The notes below the pieces were generated by a model that did not search any database, was not told the origin of the DNA, and worked only from the letters and a program-made list of their open reading frames with translations. Positions 32,949 to 41,525 of a stretch of 64,000 nucleotides of DNA are shown piece by piece. This stretch comes from Candidatus Marinacidobacterales bacterium. Lineage in GTDB: Bacteria > Acidobacteriota > Vicinamibacteria > Marinacidobacterales > DATDRI01. Every line of letters begins with the position of its first letter. Position 1 is the stretch's first letter. The position numbers and the translations under genes were made by a program. The stretch covers positions 3,552,001 to 3,616,000 of the forward strand of contig OZ245365.1 in the NCBI GenBank assembly GCA_965226495.1, in the 5' to 3' direction.

Positions 32949-33232
32949 GAGGCCACATTGTAGCCCAGCCGACGCGTTCCGTCCTCGGACATCAACGTAT
33001 CCGCACCTAGATCGAGGACCTCGGTCCCCGCCGGGATCACGTCCGGACCACCGACCGCGACGATGCGGTCGCCCTCTATCAAAACTGCTGCGTTCTTGAT
33101 CGGCTGCTCGCTCCTGCCATCGATGAGCTGACCGCAGAGAAGGCCCGTGCGTTTTCCCTCCGCGCCGGCAGGCCCGAGGCTCGCCACTAGCAGAGGTATC
33201 GTGAGGACTGCAAAGCGCTTGAATATGAGCAA
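32945..33232 (-). pseudogene. Truncated N-terminal remnant of an exported amidohydrolase
   Basis: GGGAGG + TTG 33232, signal peptide, LIDG...AAVLIEGDRIVAVG...VLDLG..TL; ends where PGLIDxHxH is expected. Confidence 0.65.
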
Positions 33233-33297
33233 TGCCTCCCCTAGCGAGGTTTTATTACAGATCGCTACGTCGCCGCAAAATTTGCTATAACGCGAGA

Positions 33298-34260
33298 GTG
33301 AGTCAACTCTCCCTATTCGACGAAGGGGATACGCCGCCCACTGTGCGGGGTGTCGCTCCCTCGCCCACCCACCAAGCACTCGCCAGGAAGCTACCCAAAA
33401 ACCTCTATCTTGGCTGCTCATCCTGGTCCTTCCCGGGCTGGGAGGGTTTGGTCTACGAAGACCGGGGAAAGAAGACGGATCTGGCGCGACACGGACTCGC
33501 CGCCTACGCCACACATCCCTTGCTCACGAGTGTGGGAATCGATCGAACCTATTACTCACCTCTGTCCGCCGACGATTTCACCGACTACCGCGAAGCGGTG
33601 CCGGAGGCGTTCCGCTTCCTCGTCAAGGCCCATCAACTCTGCACGATGGCCACCTTCAAGTCTCCGACGGGGCAGTCGACCGAGAATCCGTCCTTTCTCG
33701 ATCCCAGCTATGCACGGGATGAAGTCGTCGGCCCGTACGCCGAAGGACTGAAGCAGAAGGCCGGCGTGTTGGTCTTCCAGTTCCCGCCCCAGTCGGTTGC
33801 CACCATGGGTGGCCGCGACGGCTTCGCAGAAAAGTTACACGCCTTCCTCGGGGGACTGCCCTCCGGGTTTTCTTACGCGACCGAAATCCGCAACCCGGAG
33901 CTCATGACACCGCGGTATTTCCAAGCGCTCTCGGACCAGAACGCGAGCCACTGCTATAACGTACACCCCACGATGCCGCCGCTCGACGAGCAACGGCGAC
34001 TCGCCGAAGCCTCTCGGGGCCCGGCGGTCGCGGTACGCTGGATGCTGCGACGGGATCGGGAGTACGAGACGGCCAAGGAAGAGTTCGCGCCTTTCAACCG
34101 TCTCGCGGCCGAGGACACCTCCTCGCGGCGGCAGGTGGCTGATACGATCCAGGCCTCCCCGAGGAGCCAGCCGGTGTTCGTGATCGTCAACAACAAAGCC
34201 GAAGGCTCCGCTCCGCTGAGCATATTCCGGCTCGCCGAATATCTCGCCGACTCCCAGTGA
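33298..34260 (+). CDS. DUF72 (YecE-like) protein
   Basis: LGCSSWSFPGW.G..Y, D.TYY, FLVKA, FQFPP, EIRN, VNNKAEG.A. Confidence 0.9.
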   Translation: MSQLSLFDEGDTPPTVRGVAPSPTHQALARKLPKNLYLGCSSWSFPGWEGLVYEDRGKKTDLARHGLAAYATHPLLTSVGIDRTYYSPLSADDFTDYREAVPEAFRFLVKAHQLCTMATFKSPTGQSTENPSFLDPSYARDEVVGPYAEGLKQKAGVLVFQFPPQSVATMGGRDGFAEKLHAFLGGLPSGFSYATEIRNPELMTPRYFQALSDQNASHCYNVHPTMPPLDEQRRLAEASRGPAVAVRWMLRRDREYETAKEEFAPFNRLAAEDTSSRRQVADTIQASPRSQPVFVIVNNKAEGSAPLSIFRLAEYLADSQ

Positions 34261-34411
34261 TTTACGTCACAGAGCCCAATCGAGTATCCGTCCTATCATC
34301 CTGCCACCCTCGGTCGACGCCGATCGAGGTGGAGCCAGGTCTTGGCTCTGTGATATGTTCTGAGGCGCGCCCGGTTCGAGGTTGGGACAAACGCAACTTA
34401 GAGAGGCGCCC

Positions 34412-34615
34412 ATGGTCGTTTATTGTAGCTGGTGCGACCGCGAGATTCTCCCGAGCGATGGGAGCCCCAGCGCACAGCGCGAGGGGTTATGTTTAGACTG
34501 CACTCTTAATTTCATTAGTGGTCAGCCATCGGAGAGAAGACGCGGAGAGCGCCGCCGGTACTCCGCCAAGCCGGTCAGCGAAAGACGCAGCGTTAGCGAG
34601 CGCCGACGCGACTAG
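34412..34615 (+). CDS. Small Cys4 protein with C-terminal ERR repeats
   Basis: GAGAGG + ATG 34412; CSWC...CLDC and four ERR motifs. Confidence 0.55.
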   Translation: MVVYCSWCDREILPSDGSPSAQREGLCLDCTLNFISGQPSERRRGERRRYSAKPVSERRSVSERRRD

Positions 34616-34779
34616 CTTGACCTGGAGTTCGACTGTCATTCGCCCGCTGGAGGTGTACCCACCCTCAAATTCCCACCCCGTCTGATATAGGCCTGATCTA
34701 GCTTGACCGGGGCCCGCCCGGTGTCGTTGGACTGGACGCTCGGGCCCCCAAACAGGATAAGACCGGGACAGTGGGAACG

Positions 34780-35633
34780 ATGACCGAAACCGAACAAATA
34801 AAGGCCCTCGGTCTGAAGAACGGGGCGTTGGTCATCGAACATGTGTCGCTGCCGCCGATGCCTTCAACGAGTACGTCCCCGAAGGGCATCGGCCTGCCGA
34901 CATTCTGCTGGGCGCCAAGTCCGTCGTCGTCGCAGGCAACCCAGGGCCGACCGCCGGGGGGTGGCGATCTCCCGATCATCGAGTCATGGAAATCACCGGC
35001 TACGACTTCCGGGAGAACGTCGCGGTCCACGTCATGGCCGACTTCATCGAGAGCGAGCTTGGCTATCAAGCCATTCAAGCCCCCTCGCTCCCGACCGCTG
35101 GGCACAAGCCGCCGATGAGCATGATGCTGTCCGCGGTATTGGCAGGCTTGGGAACGCGGTCGCTGGCCGCCAACATCATCCTTCACCCGGAGTACGGGCT
35201 ACTCTACTACGCCGCCCTTATCACGACGATGCCCCTCACGCCCGATCACCGTTTGGAAAAGGACGTTTGTCCTTCTCCACCGTGCATTGAGATGTATAAG
35301 AAGCTGGGCACGACGCCCTGCATCGCAGCGTGCCCGGCGTCCGAGGAGGGGTGCCTCGACGGAAAGATTGACGAGGAAGGTCGCATCTCCTATTCCTATT
35401 ACGATCGTGAACGATGCACGTCCCGCGCTATGAACTTCGGCGTGGGCGGGCTCCAGAAGGCTCTCGTTCAAATCGTCACCGAGGATGATCGGGAAAAGAG
35501 GAAGGCCATGATTCACTCCGACTTCTTCACCCAGTCTCTGTCCTCACTTGGTTTCTACAAAGAGAGCGTTGCTCAGTGTTTCGAATGCATGCGGGTGTGC
35601 CCCGTCGGGCAACCGCATCGGAAACTCAGTTGA
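34780..35633 (+). CDS. QueG/reductive-dehalogenase-like 2x[4Fe-4S] protein, copy 1 (frameshift at ~34838-34842)
   Basis: RPADILLGAKSVVV, AVLAGLG...ILHPEYG...ALITTMPL, C..C..CIAACP and RC...CFECMRVCP; the N-terminus MTETEQIKALGLKNGA lies in another frame. Confidence 0.75.
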
Positions 35634-36505
35634 AGACTACCGACAAGCCGGACGTTCTTGACTTAGTTGTCGCGAAGCAAGAACTCGGAACCTTCGCGCA
35701 GAAGAACGGCGCTCTCTCATTCGGCGTCGCGGCTATCGACGGTTTTGAAGATGCCCCGGAGGGTTTTCGTCCCGCCGACCTACTCCCGGGCGCCCAGAGC
35801 GTCGTGGTGGTTGGAGGTAACCCACCCCGGGCCGGCGATTGGTTGAGCCCACTCGTCGAACTCCAAGAAACGATGGGCACAAGCGAACGCACGAACGCCC
35901 TGGGTTTGAAGATCGCAAAGTTCATCGAAGCGCACTACGGCTACTACGCCTTGTTCGTGCCCCCGGGAGTTAACAAAGGAAACCGCCCTTTCTTGAGCGT
36001 CATGATGGCGGCTGAGTTAGCCGGCTGCGGCTCACGAAGTTTGGCGGGCCCGATTCTGAACACCGAATACGGCATGCTCTTCTATTCCGCCATCATCACG
36101 ACACTCCCACTTTCTCCCGATGGCCCGCTCGAAACGCCTGCTTGCCCCGCGCCGGAGTGCCTCGAGATGTGGGAAGAGCAAGCCACGACACCTTGCCTCA
36201 ATGTGTGTCCCATCGACCAGGGGGGTTGCCTTGGAGGTGAGGTGGCGGATGGCAAATTCACAGCCCGCCGATACGACCGGGCACGCTGCACGACCCGGGT
36301 TCATACCCACTGGATGCCCGGTTTCCAGAAGGCCCTGGGGGCTGCGCTCGACGAAGGCGACAAAGACAAGCGTAAGATGATCCTCTACAGCAGTTTTTTC
36401 ACTCGCTCGCTGTGGTCGCTGACCTATTCAGCGCAGAGCCAAGGTCAGTGCTACGAGTGTATTCGCGTCTGTCCCGTCGGCAAGGAATACCGGACAAAGA
36501 AGTAA
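35630..36505 (+). CDS. QueG/reductive-dehalogenase-like 2x[4Fe-4S] protein, copy 2
   Basis: TTG 35630 overlaps the upstream TGA; GVA..D...P..LLP.AQSVVV, AELAG.G, IITTLPL, CLNVCP, CYECIRVCP. Confidence 0.8.
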   Translation: MKTTDKPDVLDLVVAKQELGTFAQKNGALSFGVAAIDGFEDAPEGFRPADLLPGAQSVVVVGGNPPRAGDWLSPLVELQETMGTSERTNALGLKIAKFIEAHYGYYALFVPPGVNKGNRPFLSVMMAAELAGCGSRSLAGPILNTEYGMLFYSAIITTLPLSPDGPLETPACPAPECLEMWEEQATTPCLNVCPIDQGGCLGGEVADGKFTARRYDRARCTTRVHTHWMPGFQKALGAALDEGDKDKRKMILYSSFFTRSLWSLTYSAQSQGQCYECIRVCPVGKEYRTKK

Positions 36506-36540
36506 GGAAAAAGAGAGAAGTAGGAAAATAGGAGGCCGCC

Positions 36541-36855
36541 GTGGGGTTCTTTTTCGTCGATCCGGAAACATACAAACGGTACAAGGACGAGGTTCTCCGG
36601 CTGAGCGACTCGTTCCAGGTGAACATTCAGGAACATCTCCCCACCGAGACCCGCCGGAGGGGGCTATCCGACAAGGAGATCGCAGCCAAGCTCAACCTCG
36701 ACGAACGGGTGGTTCGAGAGGTCAGGGTTGTCGCCGAGCGCGACTATTACGATCTCGACGAATGGGAAAAGGCCATCGAGTTCAAAGACAAGGCCTGCCG
36801 CGCCTTCTCCAAAAGCGGCCTGTCCTACGTTTTCAAGAAGAGAAAGTCGAACTGA
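36541..36855 (+). CDS. Small protein with HTH-like segment
   Basis: AGGAGG RBS; GLSDKEIAAKLNLDERVVRE. Confidence 0.7.
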   Translation: MGFFFVDPETYKRYKDEVLRLSDSFQVNIQEHLPTETRRRGLSDKEIAAKLNLDERVVREVRVVAERDYYDLDEWEKAIEFKDKACRAFSKSGLSYVFKKRKSN

Positions 36856-37048
36856 GCCCAGCCGTAGAGTCTGCAGAGGTGTAGGGTTCCGCGCCCTGAC
36901 TGAGGGGAAAACACAACGCCCGATGGGAGCCAGTCGCCAATCCCTCCCTCTATGAGCAAGATAGACAGTGGAGATGTGTGCCAGAGTCCGGCACAAGTCT
37001 TGCTATTTCCGAGGCGGGATCCAAATATCTACGGAGAGAAAGCCGGAA

Positions 37049-38083
37049 ATGTCCGACAAACCATCGCCCGACCCGACGAAACACGAGATCCTGCTCCTCG
37101 CGACCGAGAGTCAGGCCTACGCCTTCGATCTTTCTGAGACCTTCCGCATCGCGATTGGACGGCACGAAACCAACGACATCCAACTGCAATCTCGCAACGT
37201 CTCGAATCACCACGCGGAGCTATTGAGTGAGGCGGACGGTGTCCATTTGCATGACCTTCGCAGCACCAACGGAACGCACCTAAACGGGGACAAGATCCGC
37301 GAACGGGTCATCTCCAGTGGCGACAACATCCGGGTCGGCAGTCACGTCCTAACGGTGCACCTCAAACCGCGGAAAGTGGCGTGGGAAGGGGCGTCCAGGC
37401 TTTACAGCAAAGGGGCTTTCGAGATCGGTACTTCCGGCACTTTGGTTCCCGTGCGCGATAGTTCCCAACAGCCCCGAAAGACACACCCTTCGGGGAGCCC
37501 AACCGACCTGCCGCTCGCCGATCTCCTCAAGATCTTGACCTCGCTCGAACGGCTGACTCTGCTGGTCGTCCGAAACGGCGGAGCGGATGAGGCAAAGATC
37601 GTCGTGGGTAAGGGCGGGCTCCTCCACGCCGAGTGCGCTGCCGCCAAGGGGGAGAAGGCCCTTTATCGGGTTTTCCGATGGGCTCGCGCCACGTACCACA
37701 TACAAGAAGTCCCCCCCGGCTCGGACTCGATGCGCACGATAGCTCTACCCACGGATACGCTCATCGCGGAGGGTGTCCAACAGGCCGAGGGAGTGGACAG
37801 GCTCCTCGCTCAACTGCCAGAACCGAACGCCGCGCTCACGCTGAAAGAAGATTGTCCGCTCCCGCTTGCAGCCCTCTCCCCGGCGGAGATCAGCATTTAT
37901 CAAAGCCTGATCCGTTACGAAACGATCGAAAAGGTACTCGAAGCGTCTCAGCTTCCCGACTACAAGGCCCTTGGCCTCATCGAGGCGCTCGTCAGAAAGG
38001 GCGTCTTCGAAAACGCGGAAACTGCGGACGGCATGTTGGAAGGAACCAGCGTTTCCCTACCCAAAATGACCGGCTCGGCCTAG
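37049..38083 (+). CDS. FHA + DUF4388-like domain protein
   Basis: IGR...ND...SNHHA...DLRSTNGT.LNG; L.DLL..L, GEKALYRVFRW. Confidence 0.82.
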   Translation: MSDKPSPDPTKHEILLLATESQAYAFDLSETFRIAIGRHETNDIQLQSRNVSNHHAELLSEADGVHLHDLRSTNGTHLNGDKIRERVISSGDNIRVGSHVLTVHLKPRKVAWEGASRLYSKGAFEIGTSGTLVPVRDSSQQPRKTHPSGSPTDLPLADLLKILTSLERLTLLVVRNGGADEAKIVVGKGGLLHAECAAAKGEKALYRVFRWARATYHIQEVPPGSDSMRTIALPTDTLIAEGVQQAEGVDRLLAQLPEPNAALTLKEDCPLPLAALSPAEISIYQSLIRYETIEKVLEASQLPDYKALGLIEALVRKGVFENAETADGMLEGTSVSLPKMTGSA

Positions 38084-38246
38084 CCCGAGCCTTCCGCGCC
38101 CCTGCGGGAATACTCATCCCGCAAATTTTGAGCAGTCAAAGTTACGTGTCCGCCTGCGCTTGGAGTCGTCCCACTTGGCCGACCATCCCAACAATCAGTA
38201 TGCTTGAGAGCGAAGCATAATAAGAACCAACATCCTCGGCTACTAC

Positions 38247-38940
38247 GTGCTCGGCGTCTCGATGCTCGTCGCTGGCTGCGAGGGCGGCTCCGCCCCAGGC
38301 CCCACGCCGCCTCAGACTCCCGGCCAGGTCACACTTGCTCACGTCATCGAGGCGATGTTCCTGGGCCAGGGACCGGCGTCATCGGCAAACACCTCATGCC
38401 CGGTGCGAGGAGCCTGGGCCCCCTTCGCGCGTGGAGGCGTCGTTCGAGTCATCGTCGGATCGAGTGTCACGCAACCGCAAAGAAGAGCGATGGAGCGCGA
38501 GCTGCGAGCCTTCGAGCTTGCCAGCGGTGGCTTCTTCAGGATCGTTGTCGAGGGTAGCGGCAACCCGAACCCCTGCCCCAATCCTTTCGAGGTCACGTCC
38601 GCCACTTCGAGCGACGAGGAAGTCGCAACCCTATGCGGAGCGGGTGCAGCCGGCTGTCTCGTTGCCATCCAGGCAAGCGGTCACGAGCGGATCGGTGGAA
38701 GGACCGTTCAGGGCAATCAGTTTCGCGGGCACGGTGCACGTCCACGAGTTGGGGCACGCACTCGGCCTCTGCCACGTCAACGGAGCAAGCCTGCCCAACG
38801 CGGTCATGGCCATTCCACAGCGAGGCTCTTCCGACAGCTTTGTCACCATGGAGCTTCAGGCGATCGAGGCCGTCTACGCCTCCGGCCTGGAGCCCGGGGC
38901 GACAGGAGTGGAGTTTCAGCAAGCCGGGCTCATTGACTAG
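38247..38940 (+). pseudogene. Lipoprotein zinc metalloprotease (metzincin), frameshifted near 38700
   Basis: Lipobox LVAGC in one frame; HELGHALGLCH and Met-turn AVM in the next frame. Confidence 0.65.
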
Positions 38941-40720: not shown

Positions 40721-41525
40721 ATGCATACTAAACTGCGAATTCGTGGCGGCAAGCTCTCCGATCTGGTCGATTCCCACCAAGCCAGAGGCCAGTACGTCCT
40801 GACCCGCGAACAGGCACTCGGAGCGCTGGGGGTCTCGGATGAAGAAGGCGGTGCAACGCCTAGTCGTCAAGGGCCGAATCGCGGTCCCGCGCCGTGGTTT
40901 TTTTGTAATCGTGCCCGTGGAGTACCGACAATCTGGAGCGCCGCCACCGAGCTGGTTCATCGACGACCTGATGAATTTCCTCGGCCAGCCCTACTATGTC
41001 GGGCTCCTCAGTGCGGCCGCCCTTCACGGGGCGGCACACCAGCAACCGCAGGAGTTCCAGGTTGTCACGAACAAGCAACTCCGAAGCGTGGTTGCGGGGC
41101 GCGCGCGCATCCGGATTTTCCGCAAGCTCCGTTTCGAACGTACGCCTACGATGGAAATGAAGACGGAGACCGGCGCCATGCGCGTGTCCACACCGGAGGC
41201 GACGGCACTCGATCTGCTGCGCTACCTCGAGCGAGTGGGCCATCTCAGCCACGTGGCCACGGTGCTGGCCGAGCTCCTCGAAAAAATAGAGCCCGACCGC
41301 CTCGCCCAGGTCGCAAGAATCGAAAGCGAGTTGCCGACCGCGCAACGACTGGGCCACCTCCTCGAACAGGTCGGCGCCGGTAAGTCCGCTAGCTCCCTGG
41401 CGGCATGGATCGAGGAGTGTCGCCCGAGATTCGTGGCTCTCAGATCCGATCGTTCGGTGAGGCGCGGGAAGAAGGACACTCGCTGGCGGGTGATCGCGAA
41501 CGAGAAGGTTGAGGCCGAGACTTGA
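40721..41525 (+). pseudogene. Type IV TA antitoxin AbiEi, frameshifted at ~40838
   Basis: N-part ...QARGQYVLTREQA...LGVSD; main part RGFFVIVP.EY, YYVGLLSAAALHGA.HQ, STPEATALDL. Confidence 0.8.

Follow-up and report, generated by a model that had tools for sequence, protein, structure and literature searches.

A tandem pair of QueG/RdhA-fold paralogues with a small third gene: a candidate new family of corrinoid/iron-sulfur reductases in an acidobacterium

Introduction

Enzymes that combine vitamin B12 with iron-sulfur (Fe-S) clusters include the epoxyqueuosine reductase QueG and the reductive dehalogenases (RdhA), and to our knowledge only two activities have been established for this class, dehalogenation and epoxyqueuosine reduction. 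Here we analyse a three-gene cassette, A-B-S, in a 64,000-nt stretch of DNA from Candidatus Marinacidobacterales bacterium (Acidobacteriota; contig OZ245365.1, positions 3,552,001 to 3,616,000 of the forward strand; hereafter 'the window'). Genes A and B encode paralogues of the QueG/RdhA fold, and gene S encodes a small helical protein. The cassette is probably an operon for a soluble multi-subunit reductase, and would then represent a new family in the corrinoid/Fe-S reductase superfamily.

Three described systems are closest. According to PMC5175355, QueG is a monomer in which the cobalamin (Cbl)-binding and ferredoxin domains occupy residues 2-256, followed in Bacillus subtilis by a HEAT-like tRNA domain (Leu257-Leu385), and which has eight cluster ligands. 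With QueG (TIGR00276; B. subtilis 5D08/5D0A, S. thermophilus 5D6S), A and B share the Cbl-binding and ferredoxin domains, eight mappable cysteines and a cytoplasmic location. Unlike QueG, they have no HEAT-like tRNA-binding domain, B ending after the ferredoxin domain, and the first cluster motif, Cys188-x2-Cys-x2-Cys-x3-Cys in QueG, is C-x4-C-x11-C-x3-C in A and B (29/29 orthologues of each), whereas the second motif is kept. Both proteins also add an extra invariant cysteine and a helical insert of ~50 residues, and the cassette provides two paralogous proteins plus S in place of the monomer.

The respiratory RdhA enzymes, such as PceA (TIGR02486; 4UQU, 8Q4H), share the same two-domain core (structural Z 13.7-13.9) and a weak family match; A and B differ from them in having no twin-arginine (Tat) leader or RdhB anchor and in being far more conserved than usual RdhAs. 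NpRdhA/BhbA (4RAS, 6ZXX; Z 13-14.9) has the same core fold as well, is soluble, occurs in aerobic or facultative marine hosts and acts on aromatic acids. However, NpRdhA is one chain of ~700 aa with a duplicated core, whereas the cassette encodes two separate paralogues of ~285 aa plus S. NpRdhA also lacks a link to CoA ligases, its substrate being the free acid (PMC7565698).

Results

Layout of the cassette

The features of the cassette are as follows, in window coordinates. Loci of relatives carry L-numbers; L005 is a close relative (90% DNA identity) and L006 is from Entotheonella.

34780..35633, + strand: gene A, QueG/RdhA-fold paralogue, 282 aa in relatives, split over two frames in the window
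34838..34842, + strand: five extra bases that shift gene A, a gap in the alignment with L005 and L006, absent from the contigs of sequencing runs X1, X3, X12 and X15
35630..36505, + strand: gene B, QueG/RdhA-fold paralogue, 291 aa, TTG start, read in the sequence and modelled with AlphaFold (AF2)
36530..36535, + strand: AGGAGG, ribosome-binding site of gene S, 5 nt ahead of its GTG start, read in the sequence
36541..36855, + strand: gene S, 104 aa, all-helical, without family, GTG start at 36541, from homologues and a model

The start of gene B overlaps the stop of gene A in the tetranucleotide TTGA at 35630-35633. A first-pass annotation of this DNA had described two paralogues of ~285 aa coupled by such an overlap; paralogy and overlap both stand, but gene A is not an intact frame in the window. 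The 104-aa gene with a strong ribosome-binding site that it had placed behind the pair was also recovered, with its GTG at 36541 and AGGAGG 5 nt upstream.

Read by eye, the N-termini of A and B carry no twin-arginine leader, and no membrane anchor, reductase or que gene was seen among the neighbours of the cassette in the window. This agrees with the earlier statement that a TAT signal, an RdhB-like anchor and que genes are lacking, and with the cytoplasmic placement proposed there, since the N-termini are without leader and no anchor gene is present. We found no sigma-70-like promoter in 34200-37200, where terminator-like sites were not above those in shuffled sequences, and Rfam returned neither riboswitches nor any further RNA family for 33000-38500 at E <= 1.

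A and B belong to the QueG/RdhA/CblC fold superfamily

A and B are 47% identical (123/259). Both contain C-x4-C-x11-C-x3-CP, an extra cysteine in G-C-L, an invariant cysteine ~20 residues later and C-x2-C-x3-CP, and nine cysteines are conserved in 29/29 orthologues of A and in 29/29 of B. The AF2 model of B (31-row alignment; pLDDT 85.0, pTM 0.82) places three predicted helices at 217-269, ~50 residues between the region of the fifth cysteine and the last motif. The motifs C-x4-C-x11-C-x3-CP, GCL and C-x2-C-x3-CP reported at first pass can thus be read in both proteins, and the long helical insert has its counterpart at 217-269 of the predicted structure of B.

Family models recognize these proteins only faintly. 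Pfam gave no match above threshold for A or B. The NCBIfam reductive dehalogenase (RDH) core model (TIGR02486) matched B with 25.4 bits and A with 35.0 bits (E 1e-5 to 1e-8) at a cut-off of 160.35, and the QueG model (TIGR00276) gave 19.5 bits for B and 12.4 bits for A at a cut-off of 200. Foldseek with the B model returned QueG, PceA, NpRdhA and MMACHC as top matches (E from 6.3e-9). VIA-align superposed residues 11-290 of the model on chain residues 2-256 of QueG (5d0a/5d08) with Z 17.1, rmsd 2.9 Å, 204 aligned residues and 26% identity, followed by NpRdhA (Z 13-14.9), PceA (13.7-13.9), a membrane RDH complex (13.7), MMACHC (~10) and CblD (~7.5), while FMN nitroreductases reached 6.2 or less. 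Profile-profile comparison (hhalign) with 19 QueG sequences of the phylum gave a probability of 95.9% (E 6e-9) for B and 98.1% (E 7.9e-14) for A; the B profile searched against PDB sequences yielded one marginal match, again QueG (E 0.025).

Each protein consists of a CblC-like alpha/beta domain of the cobalamin-binding type followed by a two-cluster ferredoxin domain, with at least eight invariant cysteines per subunit. A and B are thus members of the QueG/RdhA/CblC superfamily of corrinoid/Fe-S reductases, and the QueG/RdhA-like membership assigned at first pass is borne out by Foldseek, VIA-align and the profile-profile matches. By analogy with the ligands of QueG, the cluster next to the corrinoid would be held in B by C193, C220 (or C200), C274 and C277, and the distal cluster by C172, C177, C189 and C281. 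One invariant cysteine per subunit is left over after the eight QueG ligands have been mapped.

A and B are distinct from QueG and from RdhA

The genome (one contig of 6.34 Mb) encodes QueG (376.6 bits) and QueA (394 bits) elsewhere, and QueH was not found in it. We therefore rejected the idea that the cassette replaces QueG. Three RdhA-like genes (TIGR02486) are also present, at G000:C1:888412-889008, 4484331-4484864 and 3101166-3101684, scoring 157.9, 120.3 and 116.4 bits; the best of them reaches 171.1 bits with its neighbours in frame. A second tandem pair of distant QueG/RdhA-like genes lies, behind another open reading frame, at G000:C1:5997795-6000012 (L003 991-2181 and 2192-3208) and has the motif C-x4-C-x2-C-x3-CP, so that the genome holds at least eight members of the superfamily: QueG, the three RdhA-like genes and the two tandem pairs.

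A quick maximum-likelihood tree compared 47 sequences: 17 of A, 17 of B and a further 13 taken from this genome, L021, L040 and L059. A formed one clade (SH-aLRT 98), B another (98), and the two were joined at 100 on a long stem, apart from the genome's own QueG and RdhA-like proteins; the nearest relatives were other tandem pairs and triples. The subtrees of A and B mirror one another. The tree came from a short search, and its long branches were flagged. The first-pass annotation had proposed a phylogeny against QueG, PceA and NpRdhA; in our tree A and B separate from the QueG and RdhA-like genes of this genome, which served as references in place of characterised enzymes. It had also named nesting within bona fide QueG as evidence to the contrary, and neither the scores (19.5 and 12.4 bits versus 200) nor the tree place A or B there.

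The other tandem pairs and triples (the second pair of this genome; those of L040 and L021) belong to the same superfamily and match B at E ~1e-4, but have C-x4-C-x2-C-x3-CP and no S gene. Two loci carry three further tandem QueG/RdhA-like paralogues beside the cassette, upstream in L040 (1496-4449) and downstream in L021 (7078-10123), and these triples are pairwise orthologous in the tree. A natural 670-aa fusion of the second-pair type, P0319, is 54% and 50% identical to the two halves; by analogy, it supports the idea that tandem pairs of its type may work as one unit. No credible fusion was found within the A/B family itself. Three long candidates were discarded: P0393 and P0244 are frame-shifted read-throughs with garbled middles, and P0394 fuses a pair that belongs to a distant family (26% identity).

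Our literature search found no publication on the A/B/S family, although catalogues of RdhA proteins in supplements (e.g. PMC12219181) could list its members. A/B/S would be a new family within the known corrinoid/Fe-S enzyme class, rather than a new class, and lies outside the Pfam and NCBIfam models. The third gene S, the re-spaced cluster motif and the association with BoxB described below are specific to it.

The three genes are inherited together

A word-indexed search with B gave 510 or more homologues at E <= 0.001, with 58-91% identity among the best 120; a library clustered at 50% identity contained 825 representatives at E <= 0.001 and 56 at 1e-30. The homologues are named 'hypothetical' or, in one source, 'epoxyqueuosine reductase QueG', and the latter label is wrong for proteins of the A/B family in public annotation.

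We examined the best 80 of 217 species-genome stretches that encode a relative, all titled metagenome-assembled genome (MAG) or 'Candidatus' draft. These loci span Acidobacteriota (many of them sponge-derived bins), Tectomicrobia/Entotheonella, Myxococcota, Gamma- and Alphaproteobacteria, Burkholderiales, Anaerolineales, Planctomycetota and Rokubacteria. B and A were present in 80/80 each, A being intact in 76, frame-broken in L020, L035 and L057, and cut by the contig end in L061. The order A-B-S, with S directly behind B, was seen in 79/80. In the remaining locus, L029, S was not found within the 12.8 kb examined even at E <= 10; that genome carries S on another contig (E 6e-48), with neither A nor B in the 1.5-kb flanks. 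The 4-nt overlap of A and B occurs in 52 of the 76 intact loci, and the gap between B and S has a median of 20 nt (range 9-182), with starts picked by a heuristic.

An evenly drawn sample of the window's phylum had A and B in 5/301 genomes, always paired, and S (E <= 1e-5) in exactly the same five and no others. The co-occurrence of all three genes that had been suggested as a check is therefore seen both in the 79/80 loci and in the phylum sample. The paralogy of A and B is ancient, and the pair accompanies S across many phyla; as judged from gene order and spacing, A, B and S form one operon. Paralogy, the conserved 4-nt overlap and the mirrored trees further suggest that A and B may act as a heterodimer. 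Only 6-8% of the sampled words were present in the RNA runs X18-X20.

Gene S: subunit or regulator

Gene S has 163 homologues, all without a Pfam domain; identity is 69-92% among the best 120 listed, and one source names some of the homologues 'aMBF1'. Across phyla, 29 orthologues show 51-76% identity and 20 invariant columns, including Cys86, E60, E66 and E74. The model of S comprises five helices (pLDDT 81.5).

S probably serves as an adaptor or structural subunit and not as a repressor; we favour this because it is co-inherited with A and B and conserved like an enzyme. The best-surviving alternative, which we consider doubtful though still worth keeping in mind, is that S is an ordinary helix-turn-helix (HTH) transcription factor regulating the A-B operon and that the enzyme is the A/B pair alone. 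Its weak best matches are indeed all of HTH type: the Pfam Homeodomain at a sub-threshold E of 0.14 (NCBIfam gave none), Foldseek rows at E 0.72-3 for sigma region 4, GntR and LuxR-type domains, and, as nearest named clusters in the Atlas, Sigma70_r4, HTH_28 and HTH_23 at 0.76-0.77. The name 'aMBF1' and a Lys-rich C-terminal tail point the same way. However, none of these matches reaches significance (Foldseek gave 0 matches at E <= 0.001, and the Atlas values are below its lead threshold), so that the 'small HTH protein' of the first-pass annotation lacks statistical support and is at most a lead. Moreover, S matches the enzymes in its conservation across phyla, which is unusual for a repressor whose operator drifts; the would-be recognition helix contains the invariant Glu60 and Glu66; S comes last in the cassette, separated from B by 9-182 nt (median 20); and no inverted-repeat operator or promoter was seen near the cassette. 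Prediction of a complex of A and B of L005 with S as partner gave a score of 0.69, and the control with chain B replaced gave 0.68; we count this result neither for nor against binding.

Genomic context and the box pathway

Only A-B-S is common to all 80 loci, and two neighbourhoods recur. Sponge-type Acidobacteriota share one synteny block, with an LLM-class oxidoreductase (30 loci) and PNPOx (28) behind S, boxB and boxC 2-5 kb downstream in 20/80 and 18/80 loci, respectively, all of one clade, and PheS (24) upstream. In 25/80 loci, from Gamma-, Alpha- and Betaproteobacteria and four Acidobacteriota, the cassette has an AMP-binding acyl-CoA ligase no more than 3.4 kb away. Ligases upstream are on the strand of the cassette, those downstream on either strand, and the ligases fall into several groups that are mutually 24-38% identical. 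Nine of these loci also have enoyl-CoA hydratases, three have carboxyltransferases and one has a UbiD decarboxylase. Directly upstream of A-B-S in L059 (1043-5093; Woeseiaceae MAG), the same strand carries a 530-aa RdhA-like gene (RDH E 1e-27) together with genes for an enoyl-CoA hydratase and an acyl-CoA ligase.

As described in PMC4498308, the box pathway activates benzoate to its CoA ester, and BoxAB then makes 2,3-epoxybenzoyl-CoA, an inhibitor of BoxB; the related PaaABCE can deoxygenate its own toxic epoxide. Deoxygenation by BoxB has been suggested, according to PMC5489048.

In the phylum sample, BoxB (TIGR03225, over cut-off) was present in 5/5 cassette genomes versus 48/296 others. 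These five represent three lineages, and two genomes of the same genus have BoxB without the cassette. We then took 25 further cassette genomes chosen for taxonomic spread, none with boxB in the examined flank, and found BoxB over cut-off in 17 of them (batches of 3/5, 5/5, 4/5, 3/5 and 2/5), which brings the count to 22/30 cassette genomes. One genome in the phylum count and one among the 25 are flagged unpublished. Among 151 genomes of the order to which one gammaproteobacterial carrier belongs, one has the cassette and two have BoxB over cut-off, the carrier being among those two.

We also considered that the cassette might replace a missing BoxA reductase. The genome does have BoxB and no BoxA at E <= 1e-10, but we rejected the idea; cassette genomes are not special in lacking BoxA, the canonical reductase of BoxB, because it was over cut-off in 0/301 genomes of the phylum sample versus 53/301 for BoxB.

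The frame break in gene A

At 854 nt, gene A of the window has a length that three does not divide. In the frame begun by the ATG at 34780, agreement with orthologues ends after 19 residues (16/19 identical to A of L005), and residues 21-282 continue in a second frame without stops (247/262 identical to A of L005, 94%). DNA alignment with L005 and L006 showed five extra bases in the window at ~34838-34842, and removing them joins both frames in register with the relatives. The first-pass annotation had presented 34780-35633 as an intact gene, having read across the insertion and missed the frameshift.

Seventeen sequencing runs share 34300-37000 nearly word for word (share 0.89-0.98). The 20 listed runs with this stretch come from nine studies, and we compared contigs from four of them, X1, X3, X12 and X15, each from a different study; X1 may be the source sample of the assembly itself. 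The five bases at 34838 were left out in all four, at full contig depth (5.94/5.94, 9.28/9.28, 16.1/16.1 and 15.9/15.9), and contigs spanning the whole stretch showed 0 (X1) and 1 (X12) other differences. Comparable assemblies have similar breaks: gene A is in three frames in G190 (L017 1091-2082) and is also broken in L020, L035 and L057. In L005 (3629-4662), the DUF72 gene is split into three frames. Such breaks in related single-contig assemblies suggest indel errors of the assembly class. Because contigs of four runs from four studies lack the five bases, the break is a probable assembly error, and gene A is very likely intact in nature rather than decaying.

Neighbouring genes in the window

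Around the cassette, the order of genes is GlnRS, GluRS, DUF72, a 77-aa unassigned open reading frame (ORF), A-B-S, an FHA-DUF4388 protein, AHSA1-type proteins, ArsR and AbiEi. The 77-aa ORF (34382-34615, + strand), between DUF72 and gene A, has two CxxC pairs and an Arg-rich tail and gave no Pfam match; L005 is the only one of the 80 loci in which it is conserved (84% over 62 aa). Immediately 3' of gene S, the FHA plus DUF4388 gene (36968-38083, + strand) is syntenic in L005 and in none of the other loci. An AbiEi-type antitoxin gene (PF09407, E 2e-36) lies at 40839-41525 (+ strand), and an ORF overlapping it from 41522 may be the toxin partner. Elsewhere, a gene for a 101-aa 2x[4Fe-4S] ferredoxin follows S in L040 (7256-7561).

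Discussion

We propose that the cassette probably encodes a soluble multi-subunit reductase, whose subunit contacts, electron donor and substrate class we infer as follows. A and B would form a heterodimer with four [4Fe-4S] clusters and one or two base-off corrinoids, to which S would attach as a third subunit or adaptor. An external donor of the ferredoxin type would pass electrons through the clusters to yield Co(I), which could attack a substituent of a small molecule; the net reaction would be a two-electron removal of halide, or of an epoxide oxygen as in QueG. The substrate may most plausibly be a CoA-activated aromatic acid that feeds or protects the aerobic benzoyl-CoA (box) pathway. 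This link to aromatic CoA esters is tentative, and possible rather than probable. Its most specific form, that A/B/S is the first small-molecule enzyme of QueG type, deoxygenating the toxic and self-inhibiting 2,3-epoxybenzoyl-CoA to benzoyl-CoA or dehalogenating halobenzoyl-CoA for box entry in a B12-dependent manner, we regard as improbable as a complete statement. Brominated or chlorinated benzoates are abundant in sponges and marine sediments.

Several observations weigh against the proposal. On the side of the context, the ligases are of the generic fatty-acid type (PRK06187) and not benzoate-CoA ligases, and a ligase nearby is absent from the window and from 55/80 loci. The genome's own boxB (G000:C1:4223857-4225245) is ~640 kb from the cassette. 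BoxB over cut-off is lacking in 8/30 cassette genomes, completeness being unknown for 25 of the 30 MAGs; the co-occurrence counts are inflated by the non-independence of related genomes, and cassette and BoxB may both simply mark versatile aromatic degraders. The cassette encodes no reductase partner, and the ferredoxin gene behind S occurs only in L040. On the side of the chemistry, corrinoid binding by A and B is a prediction from the neighbours of the modelled fold. In the hhalign comparison, the QueG loop V-D134-T-G falls on G-V-(D/N)-x-G of B, an alignment of low confidence in the loop. Position 115 of B, which the alignment places opposite Asp134 of QueG, catalytic there as is His106, is Asp in 15/29, Asn in 10/29 and another residue in 4/29 orthologues, with Asn in the window. 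The same loop in A reads T-A-G106-H107, again at low confidence, with an invariant Gly and His in 26/29, and Arg141 of QueG aligns with a non-conserved hydrophobic position, so that the residue is not kept.

A has the invariant residues G72-Y73-D74-F75 and H82, besides the mostly kept His107, where the equivalent site of B is T84-S85-D/E86-R87. Because the active-site loops have diverged, A and B probably have differentiated pockets, and the two sites would not be equivalent.

An alternative that we consider improbable but not negligible is that the fold has been kept without the corrinoid and that A/B is an electron-transfer or redox protein with Fe-S or another cofactor but without B12. The lack of conservation at Asp134 and Arg141, the re-spaced first cluster motif and the failure of A and B to reach any Pfam or NCBIfam model of a B12 family would all fit such a protein. 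Yet every structural neighbour above Z 7 binds B12 (QueG, PceA, the RDH complex, NpRdhA, MMACHC and CblD), with the FMN nitroreductases at 6.2 or less, and the best-conserved stretch of A/B, A-x-L-A-G-L/C-G-S/T-R-S, aligns with A-E-R-A-G-I-G-F within QueG's Cbl-binding domain. Corrinoid pockets in the superfamily share few side chains, which we count against loss of the corrinoid.

It is still less likely, and in our estimate distinctly improbable, that the A/B/S complex modifies nucleic acid (a tRNA or another RNA base) like QueG, with S in place of the HEAT-domain binding surface. QueG is the nearest structure (Z 17.1 versus 13-15 for the dehalogenases), B is at least 57% identical across phyla, unusually high conservation for a catabolic enzyme, S is HTH-like with a basic tail, and tRNA synthetase genes are nearby (GlnRS and GluRS in the window, PheS in one clade in 24/80 loci). 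These synthetase neighbours are, however, limited to single synteny blocks, the genome already has QueG and QueA, and the spread is very patchy (5/301 and 1/151), unlike that of a translation-related function; the recurring acyl-CoA ligase, enoyl-CoA hydratase and box neighbours point instead to small-molecule metabolism. Least likely of all is that gene A is a true pseudogene in this strain, with only B and S functional: the window does contain the 5-base insertion and gene A is broken in other long-read assemblies too (G190/L017, L020, L035, L057), but four runs from four studies cover the stretch without the five bases at full depth and with 0-1 other differences, the rest of gene A is 94% identical to the L005 orthologue without stops, and the same assembly class shows breaks in unrelated genes such as DUF72 in L005.

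The reading of A-B-S as a multi-subunit corrinoid/Fe-S reductase is thus the one we favour. The cassette is very conserved, and transfer has spread it among uncultured bacteria from the sea, sponges, sediment and groundwater. A third family, if true, would widen B12 enzymology. The statistical tie to BoxB and acyl-CoA ligases gives a concrete substrate class, and it is relevant to the ways in which aerobes deal with reactive epoxy-CoA intermediates or with organohalogens of natural origin.

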